Assembly: GCA_002441095.1 (NCBI GenBank)
Contig: DJVG01000043.1
Location: forward strand, 2,254-66,253
DNA from: Elusimicrobia bacterium UBA6262
GTDB lineage: Bacteria; CAYTYR01; UBA6262
Length of the DNA: 64,000 nucleotides
Direction: 5' to 3'
In this document: piece by piece, positions 5,101 through 57,038 of the stretch
Position numbering within the stretch: position 1 is the first letter of the stretch
Layout: each line of letters starts with the position of its first letter
Notes under the pieces: generated by a model
What the model was told of the DNA's origin: nothing
The model's database searches: none
What the model saw: only the letters and a program-made list of their open reading frames with translations
Translations under genes and position numbers: made by a program

Positions 5101-5364
5101 GCCGTACGAGGTATTAGCCTGCTGCAGCAAGGCTATAAAATTGGAGTTCTGGGCAACTTCTGTTAATATTGCTACTTCTTCCTTGATCTTCTTGGCTAGA
5201 TTACTGGCAATGACCTGTGCCCGGCCCTGTAAATTTTCAGTAATAGTTTGCTTACGGATAGTAGAAATAGAGTAATAGCTATAAAGACTGACGCCGACCA
5301 GGACCAGGCAAGTCAGAATTAAATTATTTACCAGTATTTTTTCCCTGAGACTGATCATTCTCAT
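2185..5364 (-). CDS. sensor histidine kinase with N-terminal TM + periplasmic Cache-like region, HAMP, PAS, HisKA (SHELRTPI) and HATPase_c (GTGLGLSISK) plus ~150-aa uncharacterised C-terminal domain
   Basis: 1059 aa; H-box FISTVSHELRTPITCI, N/G boxes DNAIKFS, DHGRGI, GTGLGLSI; two TM segments flanking ~280-aa extracytoplasmic region. Confidence 0.85.
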   Translation of the reverse strand: MRMISLREKILVNNLILTCLVLVGVSLYSYYSISTIRKQTITENLQGRAQVIASNLAKKIKEEVAILTEVAQNSNFIALLQQANTSYGTIPDRQAYFDTMDQQWRAATQESPLVKKYTDIPAAAQLRRYDTIMGKIGEVFISDRFGGLVAASGKTTDFYQADETWWQKAISYTKEKPYIGQIEFDESSQAWSIPLCIPIVGPADNVIGVLKGVYNIKNELEEMEMLNNIPGSTAVLTDQDGNILIRDLHRQLPGLKFSQDIKELIVSGKNPWIIGSDINNHSAIITVAVVKNEILQDNDLQWIVCLSQETAVAFAPIRQMFARQFALAAALLLILIPFNIFFSRRIVDSVSSLQKAMQKVSTGDLNVRSNIKTGDEIEQLAQSFNWMITDLKTAYQEITDRKLFFENIINSMSDSLVVLHNDGTIREVNKVTLNLLGYTWEELHNKSVEILFQEGDSVEILADLIAKTKKHPTRNVVVKYRTKTLVPIPVSLSCTMVRDKKNEIDGMILVGTDLRENLQMIEELNNSKNALEHYSVTLEDKIRERTRNLEQALQEAKESREVMLSLLEDFEENRQEMQVMQGKLQEWNEKISVLVESLNEGVIMLDKNGQVAVSNDMALHLLGYQKDEKDYAKVLEMLTSVGLDLSLVESWEKSKVVKKEVKLGENPSRILHFDIAPVFKAENEMIGLALAFRDVTREKEAARLKSEFISTVSHELRTPITCIRESISQVLEGIKGELNPDQKEFLHIATEEIDRLTRIINDLLDVSKIEAGKVTLNKTEHDIVPVIRSVVNNLEIRGRERQITLEMHLGLPGFSLFLDEDRIKQVLSNLIDNAIKFSQDKGKVEVYLVDKGPEIEITVEDHGRGIAAENFHKIFDRFEQINRTAGPGYRGTGLGLSISKSLVEMHGGTIRVESELEKGSKFIFTLPKLSADAVFHELLRDQLDKAKKEYESLALILIKPVQGALQAMSILDGVEAAARYSVRRADDMVVRFEERTLLVVLVRSARPGANSLCQRIIENCRKKQVPVDSLSQAIAIYPEDGHESEELLRLAKSKLEEAK

Positions 5365-6209
5365 ACAGTTTGGGTACCTTTGTTTTTAGCTAATTCCTCT
5401 TTCAGCTTATCAACCTGCTCTTTCAGCTCAATGACCCGTTTTTCCCGGTCCATAGTAACCCTGTGCAATAACTGCATTTCCTCTATTTTCTGGCTCAATT
5501 CTTTCCTGGACTTATCCAACTCCTCAATAATTTTCCCGGTCTTGGCAAACTCCCTGACCGCGCTGATAGTCCCGACAACCCGGCCTTTCTTGTCTTTCAC
5601 TGCCACTATATCAGCCAGCACCTGTCTTCCGGCGGGGTTGTGAAAGGATACTTCATTGATCATCCCCTGTATAAATACCTTTTCAAACTCGTGGGCAAAG
5701 ACCGGCCAGTCATCCAACGAGACGACATTCTTGATATCCTTGTGTAATATATTTTCCTGGTTTAAGCCGGTTTGCTCTAAGATCCGCTGGTTGCAAAACA
5801 AGATCTTCCCTTTAGCATCGGTCCGGATAATTCCTTCGGGTATCGTTTGCAGTAGGACATCAAGATCCTGCCTCTGTTGTTCAAGTTCATCATTAGTTGA
5901 CCGCAACTCCTCGTCTGTCGCCTGTAATTCCTGGTTAGTCGCCTGCAATTCCTGCCTGGCCGCCTCTGCTTTCAGGTGGGTGTTACGCAATTCCCGGATC
6001 AGCTCCTGATAATGCCGGGTGATCAGGCGTTGGAGAATGAGCAGTGAAATAAAAGCAACTAAAGTCACAAAAATAATAGTCACTATATGCGAAAGCCATA
6101 AATTGTCAATAACAAATACTTCAGTTTTTAAAAATTCAAAAACCACGGTTAATATAAATACAATCAGCGTATATGGCAGCACCAGCTGCCTGATCTTATT
6201 ATTGTCCAT
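5361..6209 (-). CDS. membrane-anchored PAS-domain protein with coiled-coil segments (QELQATNQELQATDEELRSTNDELE)
   Basis: 282 aa; two N-terminal TM helices, heptad-like ELQ repeats, PAS-like block, C-terminal TMDREKRVIELKEQVDKLKEEL motif shared with upstream 1300-aa protein. Confidence 0.55.
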   Translation of the reverse strand: MDNNKIRQLVLPYTLIVFILTVVFEFLKTEVFVIDNLWLSHIVTIIFVTLVAFISLLILQRLITRHYQELIRELRNTHLKAEAARQELQATNQELQATDEELRSTNDELEQQRQDLDVLLQTIPEGIIRTDAKGKILFCNQRILEQTGLNQENILHKDIKNVVSLDDWPVFAHEFEKVFIQGMINEVSFHNPAGRQVLADIVAVKDKKGRVVGTISAVREFAKTGKIIEELDKSRKELSQKIEEMQLLHRVTMDREKRVIELKEQVDKLKEELAKNKGTQTV

Positions 6210-9200
6210 GTGCGTTTTGCTCCAGGTCTTTCAGCTTTTTCTTCAGCTCGATGATCCGTTTTTCGCGTTCCATAGTCACCTTGTTGAACCGGTCCAGTTC
6301 ATTTATCCGCTTTTTTAACTCTTCCTCCGCCCGCTTGCGTTCGGTGATATCCTGGTTCACTCCATAAGTATTGACTGTTCTTCCTTGCTGGTCTTTGATA
6401 ATAAAATAACGAACGGAAATATAGCCAACCTCTCCATGAGAGTCAATTATACGGTGCTCTAGCTGGTGGCTAAAATTAGAATCAGTGGCTTCAATGGCTC
6501 GTCGGGTTTCCAAGCTGACCACTTCAGCATCTTCGGGATGAACAAAACGCTTTACATAATCAGCAGATGACATAGTATAGCCGCCAGCCTGCTCGGCAGT
6601 CGTGTGGAAGATAGCGTAAAAAGAATCCGTGAAGGTAAATACATCGTTTACCACATCATATTCCCAGGGTCCCAGGCGCGCCATATACGCAGCATTTAAT
6701 AACTGGGCTTCGCTCACCCGTAACGCTGCCTCAGCCTGTCTGCGCTCAGTAATATCTACGGCAAAGCCGACAATCCCAATGATCTCTCCCTTTTCATTTC
6801 TATAGGGTATTTTATCGGTCTGGACCCATTTCAGCCCTTCTTGCGTCTGCATTGATTCTACGATGTTTAGTCTTGGTTGTCCTGAATCCATCACTGCCTT
6901 ATCATCCTGCCAGTATTTCTCCGCCTCTTCTTTAGGATAAATATCAAACACCGACTTCCCTTCCAGCTGCTCTTTGGTCAAGCCCATACTTTTAGCCATA
7001 GCCTTGTTGACACGGATGAAATTATTATTCTTATCCTTATAAAAGATCATTGCTGGCGTAGAATCCAGGATAGTACTTAGTTCCTGCTGTTGTTGTAGCA
7101 GAGTCTCTTCGTATTTTTTTCGCTCAGTGATATCCTGATTAACGCCATAAGTTTTGATCGTCTTTCCTTGCTGGTCTTTGACAATAAAAAAACGCACCGA
7201 AATATAACCAATTTCCCCATTAGCATCAATTTTACGGTGCTCCAGCTGACGGCTAAAATTAGAATCAGTTGTTTCAATGGCTTTGCGAGTTTCTTCACCG
7301 ACCACCGCTGCATCTTCTGGATGGACAAAACGCTTTACGTAATCTGCCGCCGACATAGTATAGCCGCCGACTTGCTCGGCTGTTGTGTGAAAAACAGTGT
7401 AAAAAGAATCAGTAAAAGTAAAAATATCTTTCACCACATCATATTCCCAGGGTCCCAAGTGCGCAATATTCAAAGCATTGGATAGCTGATCTTCATTCTG
7501 CTGGAGTGCTACTTCGGCTTTTTTACGTTCGGAAATATCGTGGGAAAATACGAACATTTGATCTGAATCCCTGAGAATCGTTACGCTAATCACAATATCG
7601 ATAATAGTTCCGTCTTTGCATTTATGTTTAGTTTCAAAGCGGTCACTGCCATTTTCCATAATTTTATGAATACGGGCTTGTATCTCTGCTGGTTTCTCGT
7701 TTACTTCCAAGTCAGCGATTTTCATTTTTTGCAATTCTACCCGGCTATAACCGATCATTTTACAATAAGAATCATTTACTTCAATGATATTGCCTTGCAT
7801 ATCCGTCAGCCAGAAACCGTCTATAGAGGTCTCAATTATAGCTTTATATTTCTGTTCCTGTTTCTGGCATTCGGTAATATCAGTAACCACCCCGATCAGT
7901 CCGGCGATTGTGCCGTCAGGATTATTATAAGTGGCTTTATTAAAGATGACTAAACGACGGGTACCGTCTGCCTGTTGAATACTGGATTCATAGGCTTGGG
8001 TTCCGGGATGGCTTAGTAATTCCTCGTCTTTCTGGTGGTAGACATCAGCTAGATCCTTAGGCGCGAGTTCATAGACAGATTTACCAATGATTTTTTCCTT
8101 TGCTCTTCCCAAGAAACGCTCAAAAGCCTGGTTACACCCTTGATAGATCCCTTGCGCGTCTTTGTAGAATACCGGATTAGGAATAGCTTCAAGCAATTGC
8201 TGGATAAATGCCAATTGGTTTGTCATTGCGGTTTTGGCTTTTTCTATATCAGTGACATCTTCTACGATACCGATAAAACCGGTAGGCTGGTTTTGGGCAG
8301 AGACTATCATTTTGATCTGCGTATGCACCCAACGAGTCTCATTCTGCTTATTGAGGATCCTAAACTTCAAGGATTCTTCTTTGCCTTGGGGCAGCGGTCC
8401 GGTAATGATATTCAAGGCCTCTTCCTGCTCTTCAGGATGGATCAGCTTTCTCCAGCCTTGTCCCAGACATTCATCAAAAGTCATTCCGGAAAATGAAATA
8501 AGTTTTTTATTTACATAAACAACTTCCCCTTGCATATTTAAAAAGAAAATGCCAACTGGAGCCAGATCACTTAAATTACGGAATTTTGCTTCACTCTCGT
8601 GCAAGACATTTTCTATTTTTTTGCGCTCGGTGATATCCCGGGCAAAACTTAAAATAAATTTTTCCCCGGCAAGCTCAACTATGCTGCTATTGATCTCTAC
8701 CGGGATAAGCTGCCCTTCCTTGGTCATATGTTCTGATTCAAAAAGGGCCTTGCCTTCTTTTAAGATTTTAGCCATTCTTTCCGGTACTAAAGCCGCATTT
8801 TGAGGAGAATCTATTTTTGTTGGTCCCAAGGTTAAAAGTTCGGTGCGGGTATAATGCAGCATTTGGCAAGCGCTCTGGTTAATATCTATAAACTGGGGAT
8901 TAACAGGATCCAAAGTAAGGAGATATATGGCTTCAGATGAACCTTCGATCAGGGAGCGGGATTTCTGCTCTGACTGCACCAGCCTCTGCCGCGCTTTTTC
9001 TTCCTCTGTCACATCACGGAAAATAGCCGCGACTTTATCGCCTACCGGATAAATAACATTATGCATATACTGGTCGTGTTGCGCGTCCTGGTAATGAACC
9101 AGCGGAATGATCTTTGACTCCCCTGACTGGGAACATTCCACGATAGCTTTATAGACCTCGGTTTTTTCCATTGCCGGGAAAAACTTTTTAATATCCTGGC

Positions 9201-10101: not shown

Positions 10102-10219
10102 TAAGCACCCTACGCTAAAAGTAATTCCAAATTACAAATTTCAAATGACAAATTAAGGAATTCTGTGTGATCTCTGTTCTAATCTGTGTAATCTCTTTTT
10201 CTAATCGGTGTAATCATGT
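10102..10219. repeat. intergenic array of CTGTGTAATC / GGTGTAATC motifs (GATTACACAG family) ending in TAATCGGTGTAATCAT
   Basis: tctgtgtgatctctgttctaatctgtgtaatctctttttctaatcggtgtaatcat; identical 16-mer taatcggtgtaatcat recurs at ~20008. Confidence 0.6.
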
Positions 10220-12412
10220 TCACATCACAAAAAGCATCTCGCGATATTTCGGCAGGTCCCAATGCTCATCCGCGATCACGCCTTCCAGGTCATCGCTGTG
10301 TTTACGGATATGTTCCATCAGCGGTTTCAATTCATTAAAATATACAGCAGCTTTCTCTTTGCCTTCCAGGCTCCTGGCTTTTTCCAGTAATTTCACCAAA
10401 ATCTGGGTATTTTTCCGTAAATAATAGATCTTATTGGTGACATCAGCCAGGTGCCCTTTCAGATCCTCAAAAGCTTTCTCATCAATATTCAAGCCAATGG
10501 TATTTTTAAGGCTACTGATCTTTTCCAGGTTATTAGCCAATTGTCCCTGGTATTCCAGTCCCGCCGGGACAACTATCGAGTCAACCATTTCCCGCAGGGT
10601 GCTGGCTTCAATAGTGAGCACAATGTTATACATTTCAACCCAGATATTATATCGCGCCATTAATTCATCATGGCTTAATACGCCTTGTTTCTCGAAAATG
10701 GCAATATTTCCTTTTTCCGTGAAAGCAGCCAGGGCCTCAGCGGTAGAAGCGACATTGGCCAAACCGCGTTCTTTGGCCTCATAGAGCCATTCTGAAGAAT
10801 AATTATTACCTTCAAACCTGATATTTTTCGTTTCTTTAGCCAGCTGGGCAATTACTGCCACCACGGCAGATTCAAGATCCTTATTTCTCAGTTCTTTAGT
10901 TATCTCCTCAGCCACATAATTCAGCGAATCGGCAATGATCGTATTGATCACTGTCAATGGCCAGCTGATATTCTGCGATGAACCTACCGCCCGGAACTCA
11001 AACTTACTGCCGGTAAAGGCAAAGGGCGAAGTCCGGTTACGGTCAGTAGCGTCCTTATTCACTTTAGGCAGGCGTCCCACACCAAGGTCGATAATATCTT
11101 TTTTAGTGACTTTATGCGCAGTCCCGGCAACAATCGTGTCCAGCACCTTGGTCAGTTGTTCTCCCAGGAACACCGAAACAATCGCCGGCGGGGCCTCATT
11201 AGCTCCCAAGCGGTGTTCATTGCCGGCTGAGGCAATACTGGCCCGCAAAAGATCCGCATGCTTATGAACCGCCCGTAAAACTGCTACCAGCACAGCCAGG
11301 AATTGCAGGTTATCTTCCGGCGTCTGTCCGGGATTAAGCAGGTTATTTCCCTGGTCATCAGCCATGGACCAGTTCACATGCTTGCCACTGCCATTAATTC
11401 CGGCAAAAGGTTTCTCATGCAGCAGGCAAACCAGGTTATGGCGCAAAGCTACTTTTTTCATGATTTCCATCAGTAGCTGGTTATGATCAGCAGCAATATT
11501 GGATTCTTCAAAAATAGGAGCAAATTCAAACTGGTGCGGCGCTACTTCATTATGGCGGGTAGTGACGGGAATACCCATCTTAAAGGCTTCTACGGAAACT
11601 TCTTCCATATAATTCAGGACCCGCTCTTTGATCGAGCCAAAATACTGGTCCTCCAGCTGCTGCCCTTTCGGCGAAGAGGCCCCGATCAGCGTGCGTCCGG
11701 TCAGCATCAGGTCCTGCCGCAATTTGTAATAGTTATTATCGATCAGGAAATATTCCTGCTCCGGGCCGCAGGTAGAAACTACCTTGCTAATGTCCCGGCG
11801 GCTGAATAATTTAAGCAGTTTTTTCGCCGCTTTACTGAGCGCTTCATCAGAACGAAGCAAGGGCAGCTTTTTATCTAAAGCATACCCATGGTAGGAGACG
11901 AAAATGCTGGGAATACACAGTGTTTTCCCTAACCGGGTCTCGCTGATAAAAGCCGGGCTGGAAGGATCCCAGGCAGTATAGCCGCGCGCCTCGAATGTGC
12001 TCCTGATACCGCCGCTGGGGAAAGAACTGGCATCTGGCTCACCCAGGATCAGTTTGGATCCGGAGAACTTTTCCACGACCTTGCCGGCACTATGCAGGGA
12101 TATAAAGCTGTCATGTTTTTCGGCGGTCAGTCCGGTCATAGGCTGGAACCAGTGGGCATAATATATTGCTCCTTTTTCCACGGCCCAGTCTTTCATAGCC
12201 CCGGCAATTTCATCAGCCTCTTTCATACTGATGGTACTGCCCCCGGCTAACCAGCGCTTGAAAGAAATAAAGGTTTTTTTACCGATCCGTTTCTGCATTT
12301 CGCTGATACTGAAAGTATTAGAACCAAAGTACCCGGAAACTTTTTTTGGTTTTTCAATTTTTGTTAAAGGAACACTCTCGATCTTGTCCACCACTTTTTG
12401 CCTAACGCACAT
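10220..12412 (-). CDS. glnN: glutamine synthetase type III (GlnN)
   Basis: 730 aa (GSIII size); N-terminal SGYFGSNTF...YAHWFQPMTGLTAEKHDSF and central NGSGKHVNWS, C-terminal regions characteristic of Bacteroides-type GSIII. Confidence 0.85.
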   Translation of the reverse strand: MCVRQKVVDKIESVPLTKIEKPKKVSGYFGSNTFSISEMQKRIGKKTFISFKRWLAGGSTISMKEADEIAGAMKDWAVEKGAIYYAHWFQPMTGLTAEKHDSFISLHSAGKVVEKFSGSKLILGEPDASSFPSGGIRSTFEARGYTAWDPSSPAFISETRLGKTLCIPSIFVSYHGYALDKKLPLLRSDEALSKAAKKLLKLFSRRDISKVVSTCGPEQEYFLIDNNYYKLRQDLMLTGRTLIGASSPKGQQLEDQYFGSIKERVLNYMEEVSVEAFKMGIPVTTRHNEVAPHQFEFAPIFEESNIAADHNQLLMEIMKKVALRHNLVCLLHEKPFAGINGSGKHVNWSMADDQGNNLLNPGQTPEDNLQFLAVLVAVLRAVHKHADLLRASIASAGNEHRLGANEAPPAIVSVFLGEQLTKVLDTIVAGTAHKVTKKDIIDLGVGRLPKVNKDATDRNRTSPFAFTGSKFEFRAVGSSQNISWPLTVINTIIADSLNYVAEEITKELRNKDLESAVVAVIAQLAKETKNIRFEGNNYSSEWLYEAKERGLANVASTAEALAAFTEKGNIAIFEKQGVLSHDELMARYNIWVEMYNIVLTIEASTLREMVDSIVVPAGLEYQGQLANNLEKISSLKNTIGLNIDEKAFEDLKGHLADVTNKIYYLRKNTQILVKLLEKARSLEGKEKAAVYFNELKPLMEHIRKHSDDLEGVIADEHWDLPKYREMLFVM

Positions 12413-12590
12413 GGTTTTACCCCCATTGGTCAGAGTATCAGGATATCAGGATATCAGGCTATCAGGTTTTCCTGATAATCTGATTACCTGATACCCTGTT
12501 GTCCTGATCCATAATCTCCTGATATTCTCACCCTGATTACCTGATATTCTGATATCCTTATTTATTTTTCTATTATACTTTATTGCCTGG
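12413..12590. repeat. ATCAGG x4 / CCTGAT x8 opposed-repeat element (long imperfect palindrome) in glnN upstream region
   Basis: gtatcaggatatcaggatatcaggctatcagg...cctgataatctgattacctgataccctgttgtcctgatccataatctcctgatattctcaccctgattacctgatattctgatatcc. Confidence 0.7.
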
Positions 12591-16000: not shown

Positions 16001-16133
16001 AATAAGTTATAAACTACGGGTATCAGGTAATCAGGGGACCAGGGAGTGGATATCAGGAAATCAGGACAGCAGGTCTTACCTGATACTCTGATAACCTGAT
16101 TCCCTCTACCTGATAACCTGTTATCCTGATGTC
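16001..16133. repeat. ATCAGG / CCTGAT opposed-repeat element (same family as 12413-12590)
   Basis: ggtatcaggtaatcaggggaccagggagtggatatcaggaaatcaggacagcagg...cctgatactctgataacctgattccctctacctgataacctgttatcctgatgtcc; lies between znuC-like stop and znuB-like start. Confidence 0.7.
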
Positions 16134-16901
16134 CTAACTTTTCGGCGCATCATGCCGATGGCAGATAAGATGCTGGGCATATTCACCGAAGTACTCGGTA
16201 ATGTCCGGGGAAGCGCAAAAATTATCAAAACCGCCAAAAAAGATGATCTTTTTATCCAGGTACAGCATTTTCGCCGCGTATTTCCCGATCGTGCCAATAT
16301 CATGCGTGATCAATAAAATAGTTACTTTTCTTTTTTCATTGAATTCTTTCAGCACCGCGTAAAATCTTTCCCGGGTTTCCGGGTCAAGCGCAGTAGTCGG
16401 CTCATCAAGGATCAATAATTCCGGTTCACCGGCTAAGGCCCTGGCGGCCATGGCGCGCTGCTGTTGCCCGCCGGAGAGCTCGCTGATAAGCTTATGCTTA
16501 ATGTCCCTGATCTCCAGCAGGGCCAGTGCCTTATCGATCGCGATTTCATCGGTGCGGGATATCTGCTTGGGGAATTTTTTGCCGGCTAAAAGGCCGAATG
16601 ATACTACTTCCCTGACAGTAGCCGGGAACTGCGGATTAAAGGAAGTTAATTTTTGCGGTAAATACCCTATCCTCTGCCACTCCTTGAACTGGCTTTGCCT
16701 CGTACCCAAAATACTTATTTTTCCCTGGGTCGGCAGGAGCAGGCCCAGGATAGTCCGGACTAGGGTGGTTTTGCCAGAGCCATTGGGGCCAACAATACCG
16801 ATATAATCCCCGGCTTGCGCGGTAAAAGAGATCCCGCTCAAAACTTCATTCGCCTGGTATTTTACCGTGACCTGGTCTACGGCTAAAGAAATTACTGACA
16901 T
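16134..16901 (-). CDS. metal ABC transporter ATP-binding protein (ZnuC-like)
   Basis: Walker A GPNGSGKTT, signature LSGGQQQR, Walker B LLILDEPT. Confidence 0.85.
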   Translation of the reverse strand: MSVISLAVDQVTVKYQANEVLSGISFTAQAGDYIGIVGPNGSGKTTLVRTILGLLLPTQGKISILGTRQSQFKEWQRIGYLPQKLTSFNPQFPATVREVVSFGLLAGKKFPKQISRTDEIAIDKALALLEIRDIKHKLISELSGGQQQRAMAARALAGEPELLILDEPTTALDPETRERFYAVLKEFNEKRKVTILLITHDIGTIGKYAAKMLYLDKKIIFFGGFDNFCASPDITEYFGEYAQHLICHRHDAPKS

Positions 16902-19923: not shown

Positions 19924-20017
19924 AAAATCCTTTTGGATTACACAGATTACGAAAAGCGATTACACAGATAGAACGAAAGCTAGTAATCAGTGTAATCTCT
20001 CTTAATAATCGGTGTAA
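19924..20017. repeat. GATTACACAG x2 ... CAGTGTAATC / CGGTGTAATC inverted motif array (same family as 10102-10219)
   Basis: ggattacacagattacgaaaagcgattacacagatagaac...gtaatcagtgtaatctctcttaataatcggtgtaatcat. Confidence 0.65.
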
Positions 20018-20326
20018 TCATTTGCTAGATTTGATCATTATGAGCATCATTTTAAATTTCTTGGTGGCTATTAAGGCATGCGGGCGACCCGCCGGCAGTT
20101 TTACCAGGTCCCCCTTGACCGCGCGTTGCGGTTTGCCAGCGATAGTTATTTCGGCTTCCCCGTCAACAAGATAAACCAGGGCATCGAAGGGAGCTGTATG
20201 CTCGCTTAATCCTTGCCCTTGATCGAATGAAAAAAGGGTCACGGTCCCGGTGTCTTTTTTAATCACGGTACGGCTGACCACCGCCCCTTTCTGGTAGGCT
20301 ATCATCTTATTTAACTGCATTTTCAT
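20018..20326 (-). CDS. cupin-domain protein
   Basis: 102 aa; GEAEITIAGKPQRAVKGDLVKLPAGRPHAL cupin beta-barrel motif. Confidence 0.55.
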   Translation of the reverse strand: MKMQLNKMIAYQKGAVVSRTVIKKDTGTVTLFSFDQGQGLSEHTAPFDALVYLVDGEAEITIAGKPQRAVKGDLVKLPAGRPHALIATKKFKMMLIMIKSSK

Positions 20327-22044: not shown

Positions 22045-22310
22045 TGGCTCAGTAAGAACGAAGAGCAGTCAGAACGAAAAGCAGTAGAAACGAGGAGCAG
22101 TCAGAACGAAAAGCAGTAAAACATAATTACAGTCATTACGAGGAACAGTTGCCAGTAAGTAAAAAAACAGTAAGCGCTAATCTTTATTAGTTACTATCAA
22201 ATGACTCTCGCTGCTTTTGTTTTTCGTTTTGACTGCCTTTCATTCTTACTGCTCTTTGCTTTGACTGCTCTTCGTCTTTACTGCTTCTTGCTTTGACTTA
22301 TTAACTCCGC
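22045..22310. repeat. tandem CAGTCAGAACGAAAAGCAGTA units (22045-22140) and inverted copies TACTGCTTTTCGTTTTGACTG (22200-22310): long imperfect inverted repeat
   Basis: gagcagtcagaacgaaaagcagtagaaacgaggagcagtcagaacgaaaagcagtaaaac ... ctgcttttgtttttcgttttgactgcc...tactgctctttgctttgactgctcttcgtctttactgcttcttgctttgac; related copy at ~20395-20430. Confidence 0.7.
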
Positions 22311-31823: not shown

Positions 31824-31967
31824 AATACCATCTCATCCCTTCAGTAATTTATTTACTTTAATCTGTGCCGTGCCCGCCGGCGCTCTTTGGCGGGTAATCC
31901 CTGTCCGCCTCTGGCGGATATCTTTGAAATCTGTGTAATCAAGTATAGGAATTCTTACATTCTTATA

Positions 31968-48374: not shown

Positions 48375-49181
48375 ATGTGGCATAAACCCTGGGCTTTTAT
48401 CAAAAAAGACTTCCAAAATGTGGCCAGTTACAAACTGGCGCTCTGCCTGAACTTTTTTAGCATTTTTATTGGGATCCTCAGTTACTTTTTTATTGATAAA
48501 TTATTCGGCCAGAAAATTGTGCCGCACTTAGCAGAATTTGGCGTTAACTATTTTGCTTATATTCTGCTCAGCATGGCTTTTTACGGCTATATAGGCGTAG
48601 GCATGGGTTCATTTACCAACCAGATCAGGAATGAGCAATTATTAGGCACCTTGGAAGCTACCCTGCTTACTCCCACCAAGGTCAGCACTATTCTCTTTTC
48701 TATGGCCCTCTGGAACCTGATCTTAGCCAGCCTTGATGTAATGGTGTATATCCTTTTAGGAGTTTTCCTTTTTAAACTGAACTTTTCGAATGTAAATATT
48801 TTGTCCTCATTAGTGATCTTATTCCTGACTATTATTTCTTTCAGCGGCTTGGGCATACTGGCGGCTTGTTTTATCATGATCTTTAAAAGGGGAAATCCGA
48901 TCGGCGGGGTCATTACCGGCATTGAGGGATTAATCAGTGGAGTTTATTTCCCGGTGAGCATCCTGCCTGGCTGGTTGCAGACAGTAGCGATGTTTTTCCC
49001 GATCACTTATGCGATCCGGGCCATTGAATTGGCAGTCTGGCAAGGATATGCGGTAAGCCAGCTATACCGGGAGATCCTGGCTTTAGTTCTTTTTTCCCTG
49101 CTCTTGCTGCCATTGAGTTTGGTACTATTCAGGTACAGCCTCAGAAAAGCCCGGCAAGACGGCAGTCTCGCTCAATTTTAA
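48375..49181 (+). CDS. ABC-2 family transporter permease
   Basis: 268 aa, 6 TM; TGA/ATG coupled to upstream ATPase. Confidence 0.75.
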   Translation: MWHKPWAFIKKDFQNVASYKLALCLNFFSIFIGILSYFFIDKLFGQKIVPHLAEFGVNYFAYILLSMAFYGYIGVGMGSFTNQIRNEQLLGTLEATLLTPTKVSTILFSMALWNLILASLDVMVYILLGVFLFKLNFSNVNILSSLVILFLTIISFSGLGILAACFIMIFKRGNPIGGVITGIEGLISGVYFPVSILPGWLQTVAMFFPITYAIRAIELAVWQGYAVSQLYREILALVLFSLLLLPLSLVLFRYSLRKARQDGSLAQF

Positions 49182-49212
49182 AGGACTGCTGAAAAAGAGA
49201 GATTACACAGAT

Positions 49213-51354
49213 TCAATCAAAAATACGGCAGGAATAGTGCAGGTATATCTCGTCAGCAGACCGCTGATATGGCGCAGGAGATACGCGGAACCCGGCTTGT
49301 TGATACAAATTCAAGGCCGGGATAGCTTTTTTGTTAACAAACAAACCAACTTCCCTGGCTCCGGCTGCAGTCGCCCTCACAATCGCTTCCTGTACCAGTT
49401 TCCTGGCTATGCCCAAACCACGGAACATTGGTTTTGTTTCCAGACCGAATATCAGCCAAAGTTTTTCGTCTTTTTCGTATTTGAAAATAGTCAAAGCACC
49501 AGTTATCGTCTTGTTCTTAAGCGCTATTAGACAATATCCTTCTTTTTTGAGGTCAATGATCAATTGCTCTATCTCCTGGACAATCATAGTAGCATATACG
49601 CTGCGCAGGGATTTCTTATCGGCTAATTCAGCTGCCCGGATAATTATATCTTTCCCCGCTATTTTTCCCATTAAACGCCGATAACTCCTCATTTTTTGAA
49701 AAGCGGAAAGGAGATTTATCCGGCGCGCCGCAATTTTATTAATAAATAAAATAAACCTATAGCTTTTTTCTCCCAATGCCCGCCGCGCATAATCAGCAAA
49801 ACCAACTTTAGAAACTTCTTGTTGGCTGATCAAAGCCATTTCTTGTTTATTAGGGAAAATAGCCTGCCAAATAAATTCCAGCCGTTTTCCCCACTTTTCG
49901 TTCATCCCCATGGTTACTAATCCCAGATTAACCTGCCGGCCATAAAAACCATGCTTAATAAATCCTTTCAGGAACCGTCGTTCAAAGATACTTAGTTTTT
50001 TTGGCTTTAACTTCACCAAGCATTCCTGGGGCACCGGCACACCGAAAACCTCATACACCAGTTCCAAGCCAAAATATACATACCTGTCCAGCCCAAGGCT
50101 AAAGGATTCTCTTGCCAGAAAATCCCAATCCAGGCTGCTGCCCTTCAATTGCAGGAACTTAAAGAGATCATATAAAAGCATTCCCGGAGTATACGCATGC
50201 TGAAAAGCATGCAGGCATAAATAAATGACCTGATGCGTATCAGCTAAAGTCAGGGCTGGGACTTCATCCACATAAACGGTCGTGGCCGACTGCCAGATAT
50301 TCTTCATTGTAAATTTTCCCAGGACTTCCTGCTCAAAAGGGAAGAGATTTAATAGATGCCAATAAAGATGAACAAACCGGGGTGTTCCTTGCGGATCAGT
50401 GTACATTAAGCTATTGCGATAGGGATTTGCTTGCAGCGAGGAAAAGTCTTTAATAGCAAAAGGCGCGGTGTAATTTAATTCCTGCAGTATCCTGTCAGCC
50501 GCAGGCAGGTCTTCCCGGGCAACTAAAATATCTACATCTGTTATGGGGCGCAAACCAATGTCCGGATACAGCAATTCTGCCAGGACCGGCCCCTTAAAAA
50601 CAAGGATCTTGATCCCCTGCCGGCGGAAAGCTGCCAATATCTCCCCGGTCTTTTTAAAAATTAAAACATTATTGGTAAGAGTTTGGTAATAACTGCTCCT
50701 GAATCGCTCTAATACCACTGCCGGGATATTCAGTCGTGCTGTCCCCCAAGCTTCTAAGGACTTGTATATCAGCGGCGCTACTTTTTCCTCTATGGCTCGC
50801 TGTAAAAAATATTCCCATTTAAATCCCGGAGCAGACAATTTTTCTATCAGCGGACCATTTTCTTCCCGCTCACTGGGAATATTAACCAGCAGTTTTTCGT
50901 ATATATCATCAGCGTCACCCAGCTTCTTAAATATTGCTGCCAGGGGATAAAAATAAGGCCCTAACTGGGCCAGCCTAAACCAGAAATAGTTAGCGCTACC
51001 GTCTATATTCCTGTGCTTACCGTTCCGTTCAATAGCAATGACTTTACCCAATACATCTTTTGCCTCTACTAGCGGATCCGGATGAATATAGGCATCGCCC
51101 TTGGTCACCAGGACAGTCTGCTCGCCTTGATCTAGCTTTTTTATTACCCGGTGAACATATAATTTACCGGCACTGGTTTTACAAAAAACAATATCCCCTG
51201 AATTGATCATAGCTATTTCAACCGGCTCTACTACTATGGTATCACCAGTGCGCATAAATGGGCGCATACTGCCGCCGGCGACCTGGAATTTTAACCTGTT
51301 TTGGTCCGTCAGTATCTCCTGGCATATCCTGGAGAACTCTATCTGCGGATTCAT
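49213..51354 (-). CDS. tri-domain protein: N-terminal S24/S26 (LexA/signal-peptidase-like) Ser-Lys peptidase domain, central PF14907-type nucleotidyltransferase, C-terminal GNAT acetyltransferase
   Basis: GGSMRPFMRTGDTIVVEP (S24/S26 nucleophile motif); KGPVLAELLYPDIGLRPITDVDILV (NTP_transf_5-like); GLGIARKLVQEAIVRATAAGAREVGLFVNKKAIPALNLYQQAGF (GNAT motif A). Confidence 0.6.
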   Translation of the reverse strand: MNPQIEFSRICQEILTDQNRLKFQVAGGSMRPFMRTGDTIVVEPVEIAMINSGDIVFCKTSAGKLYVHRVIKKLDQGEQTVLVTKGDAYIHPDPLVEAKDVLGKVIAIERNGKHRNIDGSANYFWFRLAQLGPYFYPLAAIFKKLGDADDIYEKLLVNIPSEREENGPLIEKLSAPGFKWEYFLQRAIEEKVAPLIYKSLEAWGTARLNIPAVVLERFRSSYYQTLTNNVLIFKKTGEILAAFRRQGIKILVFKGPVLAELLYPDIGLRPITDVDILVAREDLPAADRILQELNYTAPFAIKDFSSLQANPYRNSLMYTDPQGTPRFVHLYWHLLNLFPFEQEVLGKFTMKNIWQSATTVYVDEVPALTLADTHQVIYLCLHAFQHAYTPGMLLYDLFKFLQLKGSSLDWDFLARESFSLGLDRYVYFGLELVYEVFGVPVPQECLVKLKPKKLSIFERRFLKGFIKHGFYGRQVNLGLVTMGMNEKWGKRLEFIWQAIFPNKQEMALISQQEVSKVGFADYARRALGEKSYRFILFINKIAARRINLLSAFQKMRSYRRLMGKIAGKDIIIRAAELADKKSLRSVYATMIVQEIEQLIIDLKKEGYCLIALKNKTITGALTIFKYEKDEKLWLIFGLETKPMFRGLGIARKLVQEAIVRATAAGAREVGLFVNKKAIPALNLYQQAGFRVSPAPYQRSADEIYLHYSCRIFD

Positions 51355-54910: not shown

Positions 54911-55001
54911 GCAAGCAAGTAAAAAGGGAATTAGTTTTTACCCGATATTCTGGTATCCTGATAACCTCTTCCTGATCTCCTGATTCCCTGATATCCTCAA
55001 T
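54911..55001. repeat. CCTGAT x5 repeat element (same family as 12413-12590, one arm only)
   Basis: atattctggtatcctgataacctcttcctgatctcctgattccctgatatcctc. Confidence 0.6.
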
Positions 55002-56447: not shown

Positions 56448-56501
56448 TCTTATACCTCGTTTTTCGGTTTACGGTTACGATGCCCGTTTACAAACTTCGG
56501 T
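56448..56501. repeat. tandem ~27-bp CGGTTTACGG-TTACGATGCCCGTTTA units flanking the four-helix-bundle gene
   Basis: cggtttacggttacgatgcccgtttacaaacttcggtttacgggtgcggtttcgatgcccgtttaa. Confidence 0.6.
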
Positions 56502-56912
56502 TTACGGGTGCGGTTTCGATGCCCGTTTAAAACTGTTCCAAACATTTCCGAGTTTATATAACTGTCGCGCTGATTTATCATATGAATCTATCAATTTATT
56601 ACATAATAAAACATCTGTTTGTTCTGGATAAATATCCTTAGTCTGATTCAAGCTGACAATTATTTCATTACACTCAGCCATTGCGTCATCAATATACTTT
56701 TGGAAGCCAGCTTTTTGATGTCGTTTCGCGTACCCCTCAGCTATTAATCTTGGCACTGACTTACATGCTCTACTTAGCTGATCTTTCAAATCATATCTTT
56801 CAACATCTGGTAATTTTGGTAAGACCTCTTTCATTACTACAAGCATCGCTTTATAAGTATTGTTATATACTTCCAAATCCGTAAAACTAACAATCTTCTT
56901 TTTATTTTCCAA
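56502..56912 (-). CDS. four-helix-bundle protein (family frequently encoded in 23S rRNA intervening sequences)
   Basis: 136 aa; LEVYNNTYKAML...RACKSVPRLIAEGYAKR...ECNEIIVSL pattern of the four-helix-bundle (TIGR02436-like) family. Confidence 0.65.
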   Translation of the reverse strand: MENKKKIVSFTDLEVYNNTYKAMLVVMKEVLPKLPDVERYDLKDQLSRACKSVPRLIAEGYAKRHQKAGFQKYIDDAMAECNEIIVSLNQTKDIYPEQTDVLLCNKLIDSYDKSARQLYKLGNVWNSFKRASKPHP

Positions 56913-57038
56913 TTCTTTTCCTTTCGCTCTCCGAAACCGTATATCGATTCCTAGCTTCTATTCGGGCCTCGTATCCGTTTACCGTATACCAAGCTTCTAT
57001 TCGGGCTTCGTTACCGTACACCGTATACCGAGCTTTTA
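56913..57038. repeat. tandem ~44-bp AGCTTCTATTCGGGCYTCGT-TCCGTTTACCGTATACC units flanking the four-helix-bundle gene
   Basis: agcttctattcgggcctcgtatccgtttaccgtataccaagcttctattcgggcttcgttaccgtacaccgtataccgagctt. Confidence 0.6.

Follow-up and report, generated by a model that had tools for sequence, protein, structure and literature searches.

Between glnN, the gene for a type III glutamine synthetase, and a gene for a multi-PAS sensor protein lies a spacer that contains a short array of repeats. The spacer belongs to a stretch of 64,000 nucleotides from Elusimicrobia bacterium UBA6262 (contig DJVG01000043.1), which is called the window here. One 16-mer of the array is found again at a second locus, and this raises the question of what such repeats are and what they do between these genes. 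A first-pass annotation had suggested either an operator for a dimeric helix-turn-helix (HTH) regulator or an element resembling repetitive extragenic palindromes (REPs).

The reading favoured here takes the arrays of the window to be orphan arms that belong to a mobile repeat system around a nuclease of the GxxExxY family. Such a system would be comparable to REPINs (REP doublets forming hairpins) and their RAYT genes (REP-associated tyrosine transposases). As a whole, this reading is given a probability of roughly 0.55. Its core, that the window arrays are orphan members of a GxxExxY-associated mobile repeat family, is likely when taken by itself.

A phased repeat in the window and in other genomes

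As the first-pass annotation had reported, the 16-mer TAATCGGTGTAATCAT is present in identical copies at 10202–10217 and 20006–20021, and these are its only exact copies in the window. When up to two mismatches are allowed, the same two sites are found against an expectation of 0.01, and none of 100 shuffled sequences reaches two. The 8-mer GTGTAATC/GATTACAC occurs 8 times where 1.09 occurrences are expected (0 of 100 shuffles reach 8), and TAATCNGTGTAATC, again with up to two mismatches, occurs 8 times against 1.36 expected. The annotation had named a chance-level frequency as the result that would speak against the motif. The motif is far above that level, and the probability that the window repeats arose by chance is negligible.

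The repeat unit can be written as (T)GATTACAC-N-GATT. An A-rich spacer of about 9 nt comes after it, giving a period of 21–22 bp. Every copy of the repeat in the window is intergenic, that is, located between open reading frames (ORFs). Four array loci are present in the window (Table 1); adding locus L207 brings the number to five within about 74 kb of a single contig.

Locus 1 begins 4 nt past the TGA stop codon of glnN and includes the first copy of the 16-mer. Its position between the glnN stop and the start of the multi-PAS gene, as originally described, is borne out by ORF and domain calls. The count of four units in 60 bp has to be revised, since only three units stand in the 21–22 bp register; the supposed fourth, 'ctgttctaatc', is made up of a spacer and the AATC half of the next unit. 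Locus 2 includes the second copy of the 16-mer and contains units in both orientations, which had also been recognized correctly. Its two 34-nt arms, separated by 16 nt, show 82% complementarity.

To find the repeat elsewhere, one genome per species (596 Gb in all) was scanned with the pattern GATTACACNGATTN{8,10}GATTACAC. At least 118 loci with 18 phylum-level labels, taken from record titles, match this pattern, compared with about 3 expected by chance (our own estimate, based on 20 fixed bases and 596 Gb). Among the matches listed, 27 loci are labelled Deltaproteobacteria or Thermodesulfobacteriota, 25 Bacteroidota (cultured Mucilaginibacter isolates included), 16 Elusimicrobiota, 14 Omnitrophota, 6 Planctomycetota and 5 Nitrospirota, and 8 are unclassified. 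Another 17 are spread over twelve labels with 1–3 loci each: Desantisbacteria, Patescibacteria, Alphaproteobacteria, Nitrospinae, Clostridia, Cloacimonadota, Atribacterota, Aerophobetes, WOR-3, Stahlbacteria, Anaerolineae and one doubtful Nanoarchaeia bin. Carriers of the repeat include Mucilaginibacter pankratovii, M. kameinonensis and M. lappiensis as well as the metagenome-assembled genomes JACRML01 and JACRDM01.

Five viral contigs also match, one of them Mu-like. In this Mu-like phage contig (L001, from IMG/VR), GATTACAC arrays are located in spacers at 5684–5718 and 942–976, just downstream of MuA-like (6419–8830) and MuB-like (5726–6403) genes. The repeat family thus reaches phage genomes. 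The '>>' and '<<' arrays of this contig, which lie 4.7 kb apart, were considered as a single large autonomous element, an idea that was dropped since the genes between them are ordinary Mu-like phage genes.

Conservation extends beyond the bases fixed by the search. Over 422 units, the GAT(T) at positions 9–12 is 76–96% conserved, although the pattern left these positions free in the second unit. The base at +1 outside the unit is A in 73%, the strongest flank signal, and extends the unit to TGATTACAC. The spacing of units on the same strand peaks at 21–22 bp (193 of 272). Spacers are A-rich; those of one arm are rich in purines and those of the other in pyrimidines.

With 62 cases, '>><<' is the most common architecture, where each symbol stands for one unit and its direction; '<<' comes next (41), then '><<' (26). 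A '<' directly followed by a '>' was seen only twice. The polarity is therefore fixed, with the GATTACAC arm at the 5' side and the GTGTAATC arm at the 3' side. Locus 2 keeps this polarity. Locus 1 has one arm only, as do roughly one third of all arrays.

Multi-unit arrays are intergenic in 149 of 160 cases. They lie between co-directional genes more often than other spacers of at least 40 nt do (90% versus 73%; Fisher p = 7e-5), and 7% are in divergent, promoter-type spacers. The outer GTGTAATC end is about 4–12 nt from a start or a stop codon, both equally often. Gene-less copies are frequently placed directly behind a stop codon within an operon. Among one-sided arrays, the strand relative to the flanking genes is not fixed (23 versus 13).

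Arrays are found in such contexts as rpsL-rpsG-fusA, rpsK-rpsD and glnN. The annotation had proposed looking for an association with particular gene classes. In an all-vs-all BLASTP comparison of 1,010 ORFs from the pattern-seeded loci, which were crude longest-ORF calls, no protein family recurs beside the arrays except for generic response regulators and ABC (ATP-binding cassette) ATPases. The sole standout is a small cluster of GxxExxY proteins.

The GxxExxY gene and the turnover of its arrays

An ORF of about 122–126 aa lies between or against the arrays of four pattern-seeded loci (L110, L089, L123 and L072), the sole carriers of its protein family in about 1 Mb of loci. In all four the order is the same: the gene follows the GATTACAC units, and its stop codon overlaps the TAATC/TGATC of the first GTGTAATC unit. 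The enclosed protein matches TIGR04256, 'GxxExxY protein' (E = 1e-36 to 1e-44), and PF13366, PDDEXK_3.

In an alignment of the family (A1), G-F-x-E-x-x-Y is invariant, as is D71...E81-x-K83, the catalytic signature of PD-(D/E)XK nucleases (numbered as in the L110 protein; the P0001 equivalents are D67, E77 and K79). An AlphaFold model of the protein, with a pLDDT (predicted local distance difference test) score of 93, has its best structural match among Cas4-family nucleases. Judged by this model, GxxExxY is a minimal Cas4/RecB-like PD-(D/E)XK nuclease. It has no relative in the PDB by sequence and no match in PADLOC or PHROGs.

The family is large, with 18,158 representative clusters (50% identity) at E <= 1e-3. 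Many representatives (for example P0242, P0248 and P0251) are about 260–280 aa long, match in two stretches and are tandem fusions of two nuclease domains. The one survey of the superfamily that includes the family gives 'Unknown' function and 'multiple transfers' (PMC3424549). In the literature, 'GxxExxY', 'PF13366' and 'TIGR04256' appear in passing mentions only, and the exact GATTACAC and ACAGGAT units give unrelated primer matches only. A link between GxxExxY and repeats is not described in the searchable literature, although notes in database family descriptions are still possible.

Evidence that the gene and the repeats belong together can be found in a metagenome scan seeded with the protein, from which the best 80 of 579 GxxExxY relatives were kept. 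Within this set the genes are generally preceded by short tandem repeats and followed by inverted copies of them. At least three inverted 8-mers common to both 140-nt flanks are present in 66% of 64 GxxExxY genes, compared with 10% of 223 control ORFs.

The type of repeat tracks the protein clade. Clade 1, which includes L110 and L089, has GATTACAC or GATTACA(A/G) units, and clades 4 and 5 have ACAGGAT or CACNGAT(T/G) units. In clade 1, upstream units are forward in 16 cases and reverse in none, downstream units are reverse in 20 and forward in 5, and in 11 of 17 genes the first 3' unit contains the stop codon. On contigs with a GxxExxY gene, gene-less arrays of the matching type are also more frequent (0.88 hits per kb versus 0.41 in a cross-locus control; L173, L187 and L199 are examples). 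In L214, a gene-less GATTACAC array lies 5 kb away from the clade-1 gene.

Gene-containing and gene-less forms alternate at one and the same site. The spacer between rpsK (S11) and rpsD (S4) contains the element with its gene in L089, L134, L135, L136, L214 and L215, whereas L092 has a '>><<' array lacking the gene. Either form begins at the S11 stop codon or about 10–20 nt from it (in L092 the stop overlaps the first unit) and ends about 10–40 nt upstream of the S4 ribosome-binding site.

The glnN spacer of the window shows array gain, loss and replacement among relatives. The closest GlnN proteins are in metagenome-assembled genomes (MAGs) labelled 'bacterium' (92% identity), 'Elusimicrobia bacterium NC_groundwater_1672' (87%) and Omnitrophota (about 72%). 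At a GlnN identity of 92% (L209), the glnN-to-PAS spacer has a two-armed array of a different family (ATCAGGA...TCCTGAT). At 87% it has two GATTACAC units (L210) or one unit after a hairpin (L211), and at 82% (L212 and L213) there is no array, only a terminator-like hairpin.

An example of insertion is provided by two close relatives. In L214, a 145-bp composite at 5152–5297, between rplR and rpsE, consists of a hairpin, a '>><<' GATTACAC core and a second hairpin, the terminal hairpins being GAGATTTCTGA...TCAGAAATCTC. At 5184–5199 L215 has the empty site GATCTTTTAACGGAGGG, where L214 reads GATCTTTTAA, the insert and TTTAATGGAGGG. The insertion is clean and is accompanied by duplication of TTAA/TTTAA at the stop codon of rplR (L18). 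Near-identical composites bounded by TTAACAG...CTGTTAA recur on several contigs of one groundwater MAG, JACRML01 (L007, L055, L101, L114 and L122), and sibling composites are also present in others.

The same pair also shows one way in which one-sided arrays can arise. Compared with L215 (9907–10000), the rpsK-rpsD cassette of L214 (9979–10000) has lost its 5' GATTACAC units by a deletion ending in two GATT repeats and has kept its 3' units. Arrays turn over quickly. Taken together, the spacer states and the L214/L215 insertion mean that members of the family appear, disappear or give way to others and that, at least as composites, they transpose.

Positions 1–13000 of L214 and L215 contain a Deltaproteobacteria-like S10-spc-alpha cluster with many unusually long spacers of 100–300 nt. 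These are filled by a variety of repeats, among them GGGATTTG runs, CCTGCCTACC hairpins and TTGCAAATTG-type repeats, and two of them appear to hold uncalled small ORFs resembling rpmJ and rpsN.

Window features and neighbouring repeat families

The array loci of the window and the genes next to them are collected in Table 1. The genes beside the arrays are ordinary ones and include a cupin gene, a gene of the cytidine-deaminase family, methyltransferase genes and an ABC-2 permease gene; a Cupin_2 protein and the cytidine-deaminase-family protein are the neighbours of locus 2.

Table 1. Repeat arrays of the window and adjoining genes (window positions)
Feature	Positions	Strand	Mismatches to unit	Remarks
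Locus 1	10160–10217	minus		one-sided; three direct units, periods 22 and 21 bp
Locus 1 unit GATTACACCGATT	10203–10215	minus	0–1	
Locus 1 unit GATTACACAGATT	10181–10193	minus	0–1	
Locus 1 unit GATCACACAGAAT	10160–10172	minus		degenerate
Locus 2	19936–20021	both		2+2 inverted array, '>><<'
Locus 2 forward units	19936–19948, 19958–19970		0–1	
Locus 2 reverse units	19985–19997, 20007–20019		0–1	
Third array	31860–31940	minus		two units, split by two GC-rich insertions
Third array, AATCTGTG	31860–31867			
Third array, 27-nt insertion	31868–31894			carries CCCGCC...GGCGGG hairpin
Third array, TAATC	31895–31899			
Third array, hairpin CCTGTCCGCCTCTGGCGGA	31900–31918			19-nt insertion
Third array, intact unit AATCTGTGTAATC	31928–31940		0–1	preceded by 9-nt spacer
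Solitary unit GATTACACAGATT	49201–49213	plus	0–1	31-nt spacer between convergent genes
glnN, type III glutamine synthetase	10220–12412	minus		flanking gene only; GSIII_N, Gln-synt_C; PF12437, PF00120, PF18318
Multi-PAS sensor gene, 1300 aa	6199–10101	minus		flanking gene only; ATG 58 nt downstream of last unit
Cupin ORF	20018–20326	minus		TGA stop inside outermost unit of locus 2
ABC-2 permease	48375–49181	plus		neighbour of solitary unit
NTP_transf_5/GNAT protein	49213–51354	minus		neighbour of solitary unit

Once its insertions of 27 and 19 nt are removed, the third array has an exact 22-bp period. The 19-nt hairpin is present at the same position within an array of L050. GC-rich palindromes of this kind (CCTGCCTGCCGGCAGGCAGG and CCTGTCCGCCTCTGGCGGA) form a dispersed hairpin family of their own across phyla. 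Besides the two insertions in the window, copies are found at L001 4423, L002 1699, L009 201, L050 6172, L093 1247 and about 15 other loci. Several lie inside GATTACAC arrays, typically right past the AATC of a unit, and most copies are unrelated to arrays.

Other repeats occur close to the arrays. At 10123–10150, between the GATTACAC array and the start of the PAS gene, there are tandem AATT(C/T)CAAAT(T/G)ACA / ATTTGAAATTTGA-like repeats, which are kept in the ortholog with 87% GlnN identity that has two units (L210).

The ATCAGG(A/C)T family consists of 8-nt units, (T)ATCAGG(A/C)T and the inverted CCTGATA, in a '>>> <<<' architecture. It is represented in the window at 12436–12560, 16020–16136 and 54944–54988. 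The first of these arrays lies between the stop codon of a P-type ATPase gene and the start of glnN, so that glnN is bracketed by two different array families. It is also an ATCAGG-family array that the closest glnN ortholog has in place of the GATTACAC units of the window. A third family, at 22049–22237 in the spacer upstream of an FGGY kinase gene, has tandem CAGT(C/A)AGAACGAAAAG units with an inverted copy, GCTGCTTTTGTTTTTCGTTTTGACTG, about 90 nt later.

A cassette with a different gene is located at 56448–57038, between gltB and gltD. Its gene (56502–56912, minus strand, 136 aa) encodes a four-helix-bundle protein of PF05635, '23S rRNA intervening sequence'. ACGGTA/TACGG-type tandem repeats lie upstream and CCGTAAACCG-type inverted copies downstream, and the TAA stop codon is inside a repeat unit. 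This is the layout of the GxxExxY cassettes. More PF05635 genes with inverted short-repeat flanks of other sequence are present at L110 2995–3330, L073 4561–4932 and L120 6525–6785.

Competing explanations and known systems

In the favoured reading, the units would be DNA sites bound by the cognate GxxExxY nuclease, with cutting or recombination nearby. The phasing of 21–22 bp would set the units on one face of the duplex. Breakage by the nuclease followed by repair, or else transposition, would spread and maintain the arrays. The copies in the glnN/PAS and cupin/deaminase spacers would be non-autonomous passengers and not regulators of their neighbours. Since no GxxExxY ORF lies between the arms in the window, the window copies are orphan arrays. 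For clade-1 GxxExxY proteins, GATTACACNGATT arrays are the predicted DNA ligand.

Several observations weigh against this reading. A jackhmmer search of the window found no GxxExxY ORF, and none is listed in the contig flanks of about 19 kb; with about 83 kb of contig covered in total, a cognate enzyme is hypothetical for this genome. In the unbiased set, the gene is present in just 4 of about 160 arrays. The rpsK-rpsD gene is 70–90% identical across hundreds of contigs, and the three homologs checked (P0001, which is L089, P0011 and P0022) are all in that spacer; this suggests vertical inheritance with purifying selection, as would suit a domesticated gene better than an active parasite.

Naked arrays like those of the window have no consistent target-site duplication; a scan of TTAA/TAA positions gave a weak bump at +25 to +31, which is due to the composites. 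The composites, for their part, have outer inverted repeats of their own that could be used by another transposase. Spacers differ between array copies, which are thus not recent identical copies. The agreement between clade and repeat would also arise by simple linkage, with no recognition of DNA by the protein. Finally, the repeat-flanked layout is common to the unrelated PF05635 genes, so a carrier may not need GxxExxY.

This last point leads to an alternative, in which the arrays are terminal or subterminal repeats of a carrier similar to a miniature inverted-repeat transposable element (MITE) and owe their movement to a different enzyme. The loop of the carrier would contain GxxExxY or the four-helix-bundle protein as cargo, and the window copies would be empty carriers. 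The layout common to two unrelated small-gene families keeps this model alive. Composites built on a GATTACAC core have outer inverted repeats and a TTAA duplication of the kind typical for cut-and-paste transposons, and gene-less forms far outnumber those with a gene. The model is nevertheless unlikely, as no transposase family recurs near the arrays in about 1 Mb of loci and most arrays, those of the window included, have neither outer hairpins nor duplications. Moreover, the GxxExxY ORF is fused into its arrays, with the stop and sometimes the start codon in a unit, which suggests long co-evolution over random capture of cargo, and the nuclease retains its catalytic residues. Alternately, the inverted arms might act in RNA, pairing in the transcript to form a long stem that is cut by RNase III or stabilises the upstream message. 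Gene-less arrays would then be the ORF-less version, as in 23S rRNA intervening sequences or in REPs and bacterial interspersed mosaic elements (BIMEs). Locus 2 does fold strongly (-32.9 kcal/mol, z = -7.25), the enrichment between co-directional genes extends to places within ribosomal-protein operons, the arms differ in purine and pyrimidine content, and the similarly arranged PF05635 genes belong to the family that supplies the ORF of 23S rRNA intervening sequences. A stem, however, needs complementarity and not a 13-nt sequence conserved over 18 phylum-level labels. The spacers of opposite arms are no more complementary to each other (0.37) than to shuffled partners (0.44), and the N position shows no co-variation between arms (25 A,A pairs seen, about 26 expected). 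One-sided, unstructured arrays, about a third of the total, are found on either strand relative to transcription (23 versus 13), and locus 1, one of them, does not fold by itself (z = +0.5 and +1.5). No match was found in Rfam, either for the whole window at gathering thresholds or, with any credibility, for both loci in E-value mode; a match to SNORA81 (25.7 bits, threshold 45) is spurious. An RNA-level role is accordingly rated improbable.

The operator put forward in the first-pass annotation, at which a dimeric HTH regulator would control the multi-PAS gene and other downstream genes, is the least credible of the proposals and is regarded as very improbable. Units on one helix face are what cooperative binding would call for, and some arrays finish 7–12 nt before a start codon. 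Against this, the arrays of at least 118 loci have unrelated neighbours and no recurring regulator gene, abut stop codons as often as starts, and are rare in divergent spacers (the 7% given above). Orthologous spacers lack the array or have one of a different family, and the same sequence is present under 18 phylum-level labels and in phage contigs. Consensus scans for promoters and terminators at both window loci found nothing inside the arrays, sigma-70-like promoters included. The boxes of DnaA, IHF, CRP, Fur/Zur, ArgR and NrdR were dropped as candidates, as were integron attC sites and the ends of Tn7, Mu and CRISPR-associated transposons (CASTs), having no sequence match.

The hypothesis offers GxxExxY/PDDEXK_3 its first concrete functional context that can be put to a test, and it predicts a DNA ligand clade by clade. 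A wider proposal can be made tentatively, at somewhat less than even odds: GxxExxY proteins may be sequence-specific nucleases that, together with clade-specific arrays, make up an undescribed class of mobile or domesticated elements across at least 18 phylum-level groups. This class would be an analogue of REPINs and RAYTs on a Cas4-like PD-(D/E)XK fold, remodelling intergenic DNA that includes the spacers of ribosomal-protein operons, and the window arrays would be non-autonomous copies of it. If the nucleases are sequence-specific, the pairs of clade and repeat would be a natural catalogue of new specificities.

Some consequences concern the repeat itself. A single 13-nt repeat with fixed phase and polarity, common to very distant phyla, is uncommon among REP-like repeats; it means either that the repeat has spread horizontally or that a conserved protein recognises it. 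The arrays account for unusually long, repeat-filled spacers in compact genomes, even inside the S10-spc-alpha cluster; lineages with such spacers are Omnitrophota- and Elusimicrobia-like groundwater bacteria, Deltaproteobacteria and Mucilaginibacter. In annotation, arrays of this kind should not be read as operators of the adjoining genes.

Several known systems can be compared with the arrays. The repeats of CRISPR (clustered regularly interspaced short palindromic repeats) arrays are at least about 23 nt long, are separated by unique spacers of similar length and have cas genes nearby. A CRISPR array was rejected for the window, where units of 13 nt alternate with spacers of about 9 nt in arrays of 2–3 units, with no cas gene among the called genes. 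Likewise, the GxxExxY protein differs from Cas4-family nucleases in lacking an Fe-S cluster as well as cas genes and a CRISPR array. It differs from free-standing PD-(D/E)XK homing endonucleases such as I-Ssp6803I in that there is no intron or intein context, and flanking tandem repeats are not known as a feature of homing endonuclease genes.

23S rRNA intervening sequences, some of which contain a PF05635 four-helix-bundle ORF, are similar in being insertions in transcribed essential DNA, in having inverted repeats around an optional small ORF, in the frequency of ORF-less versions and in their patchy distribution across lineages. The arrays described here, in contrast, are in mRNA spacers and not in rRNA helices, their sequence is conserved without co-variation, and their ORF encodes a nuclease.

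MITEs and transposons with several subterminal binding motifs (the ends of Tn7 and Mu, the repeats of En/Spm and Ac/Ds) share the inverted arms of repeated short motifs and the existence of non-coding derivatives. In the composites of L214 and JACRML01, the resemblance extends to terminal inverted repeats, a TTAA duplication and near-identical copies. The non-coding locus 2, with its complementary arms and short loop, also resembles a MITE, whereas the one-sided locus 1 does not. Unlike with MITEs, no duplication is detectable at the window copies or at most others, one-sided forms are common, and neither a DDE-type nor any other transposase is associated with them.

REPs and REPINs are short multi-copy intergenic repeats, commonly in inverted doublets, built from species-specific, imperfect palindromes of about 20–40 nt. 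The RAYT gene, of the Y1/HUH type, is bracketed by its own repeats and is inherited vertically while gene-less copies turn over. The suggestion of a REP-like element made at the outset therefore holds in spirit, since the repeat is dispersed, intergenic, partly palindromic and, elsewhere, placed around a cognate gene; it fails for the unit, which is no palindrome.

The differences from this system are clear. The unit is a non-palindromic 13-mer with a phase of 21–22 bp, unstructured at locus 1, and, unlike the species-specific REPs, it recurs with one sequence in many phyla. The bracketed gene encodes a PD-(D/E)XK protein (PF13366/TIGR04256) with a Cas4-like fold and not an HUH/Y1 enzyme. In function, REPINs and RAYTs are still the closest known counterparts of the arrays: both systems have many intergenic copies in inverted doublets, an enzyme gene bracketed by the repeats, and a vertically inherited gene accompanied by gene-less copies that turn over.

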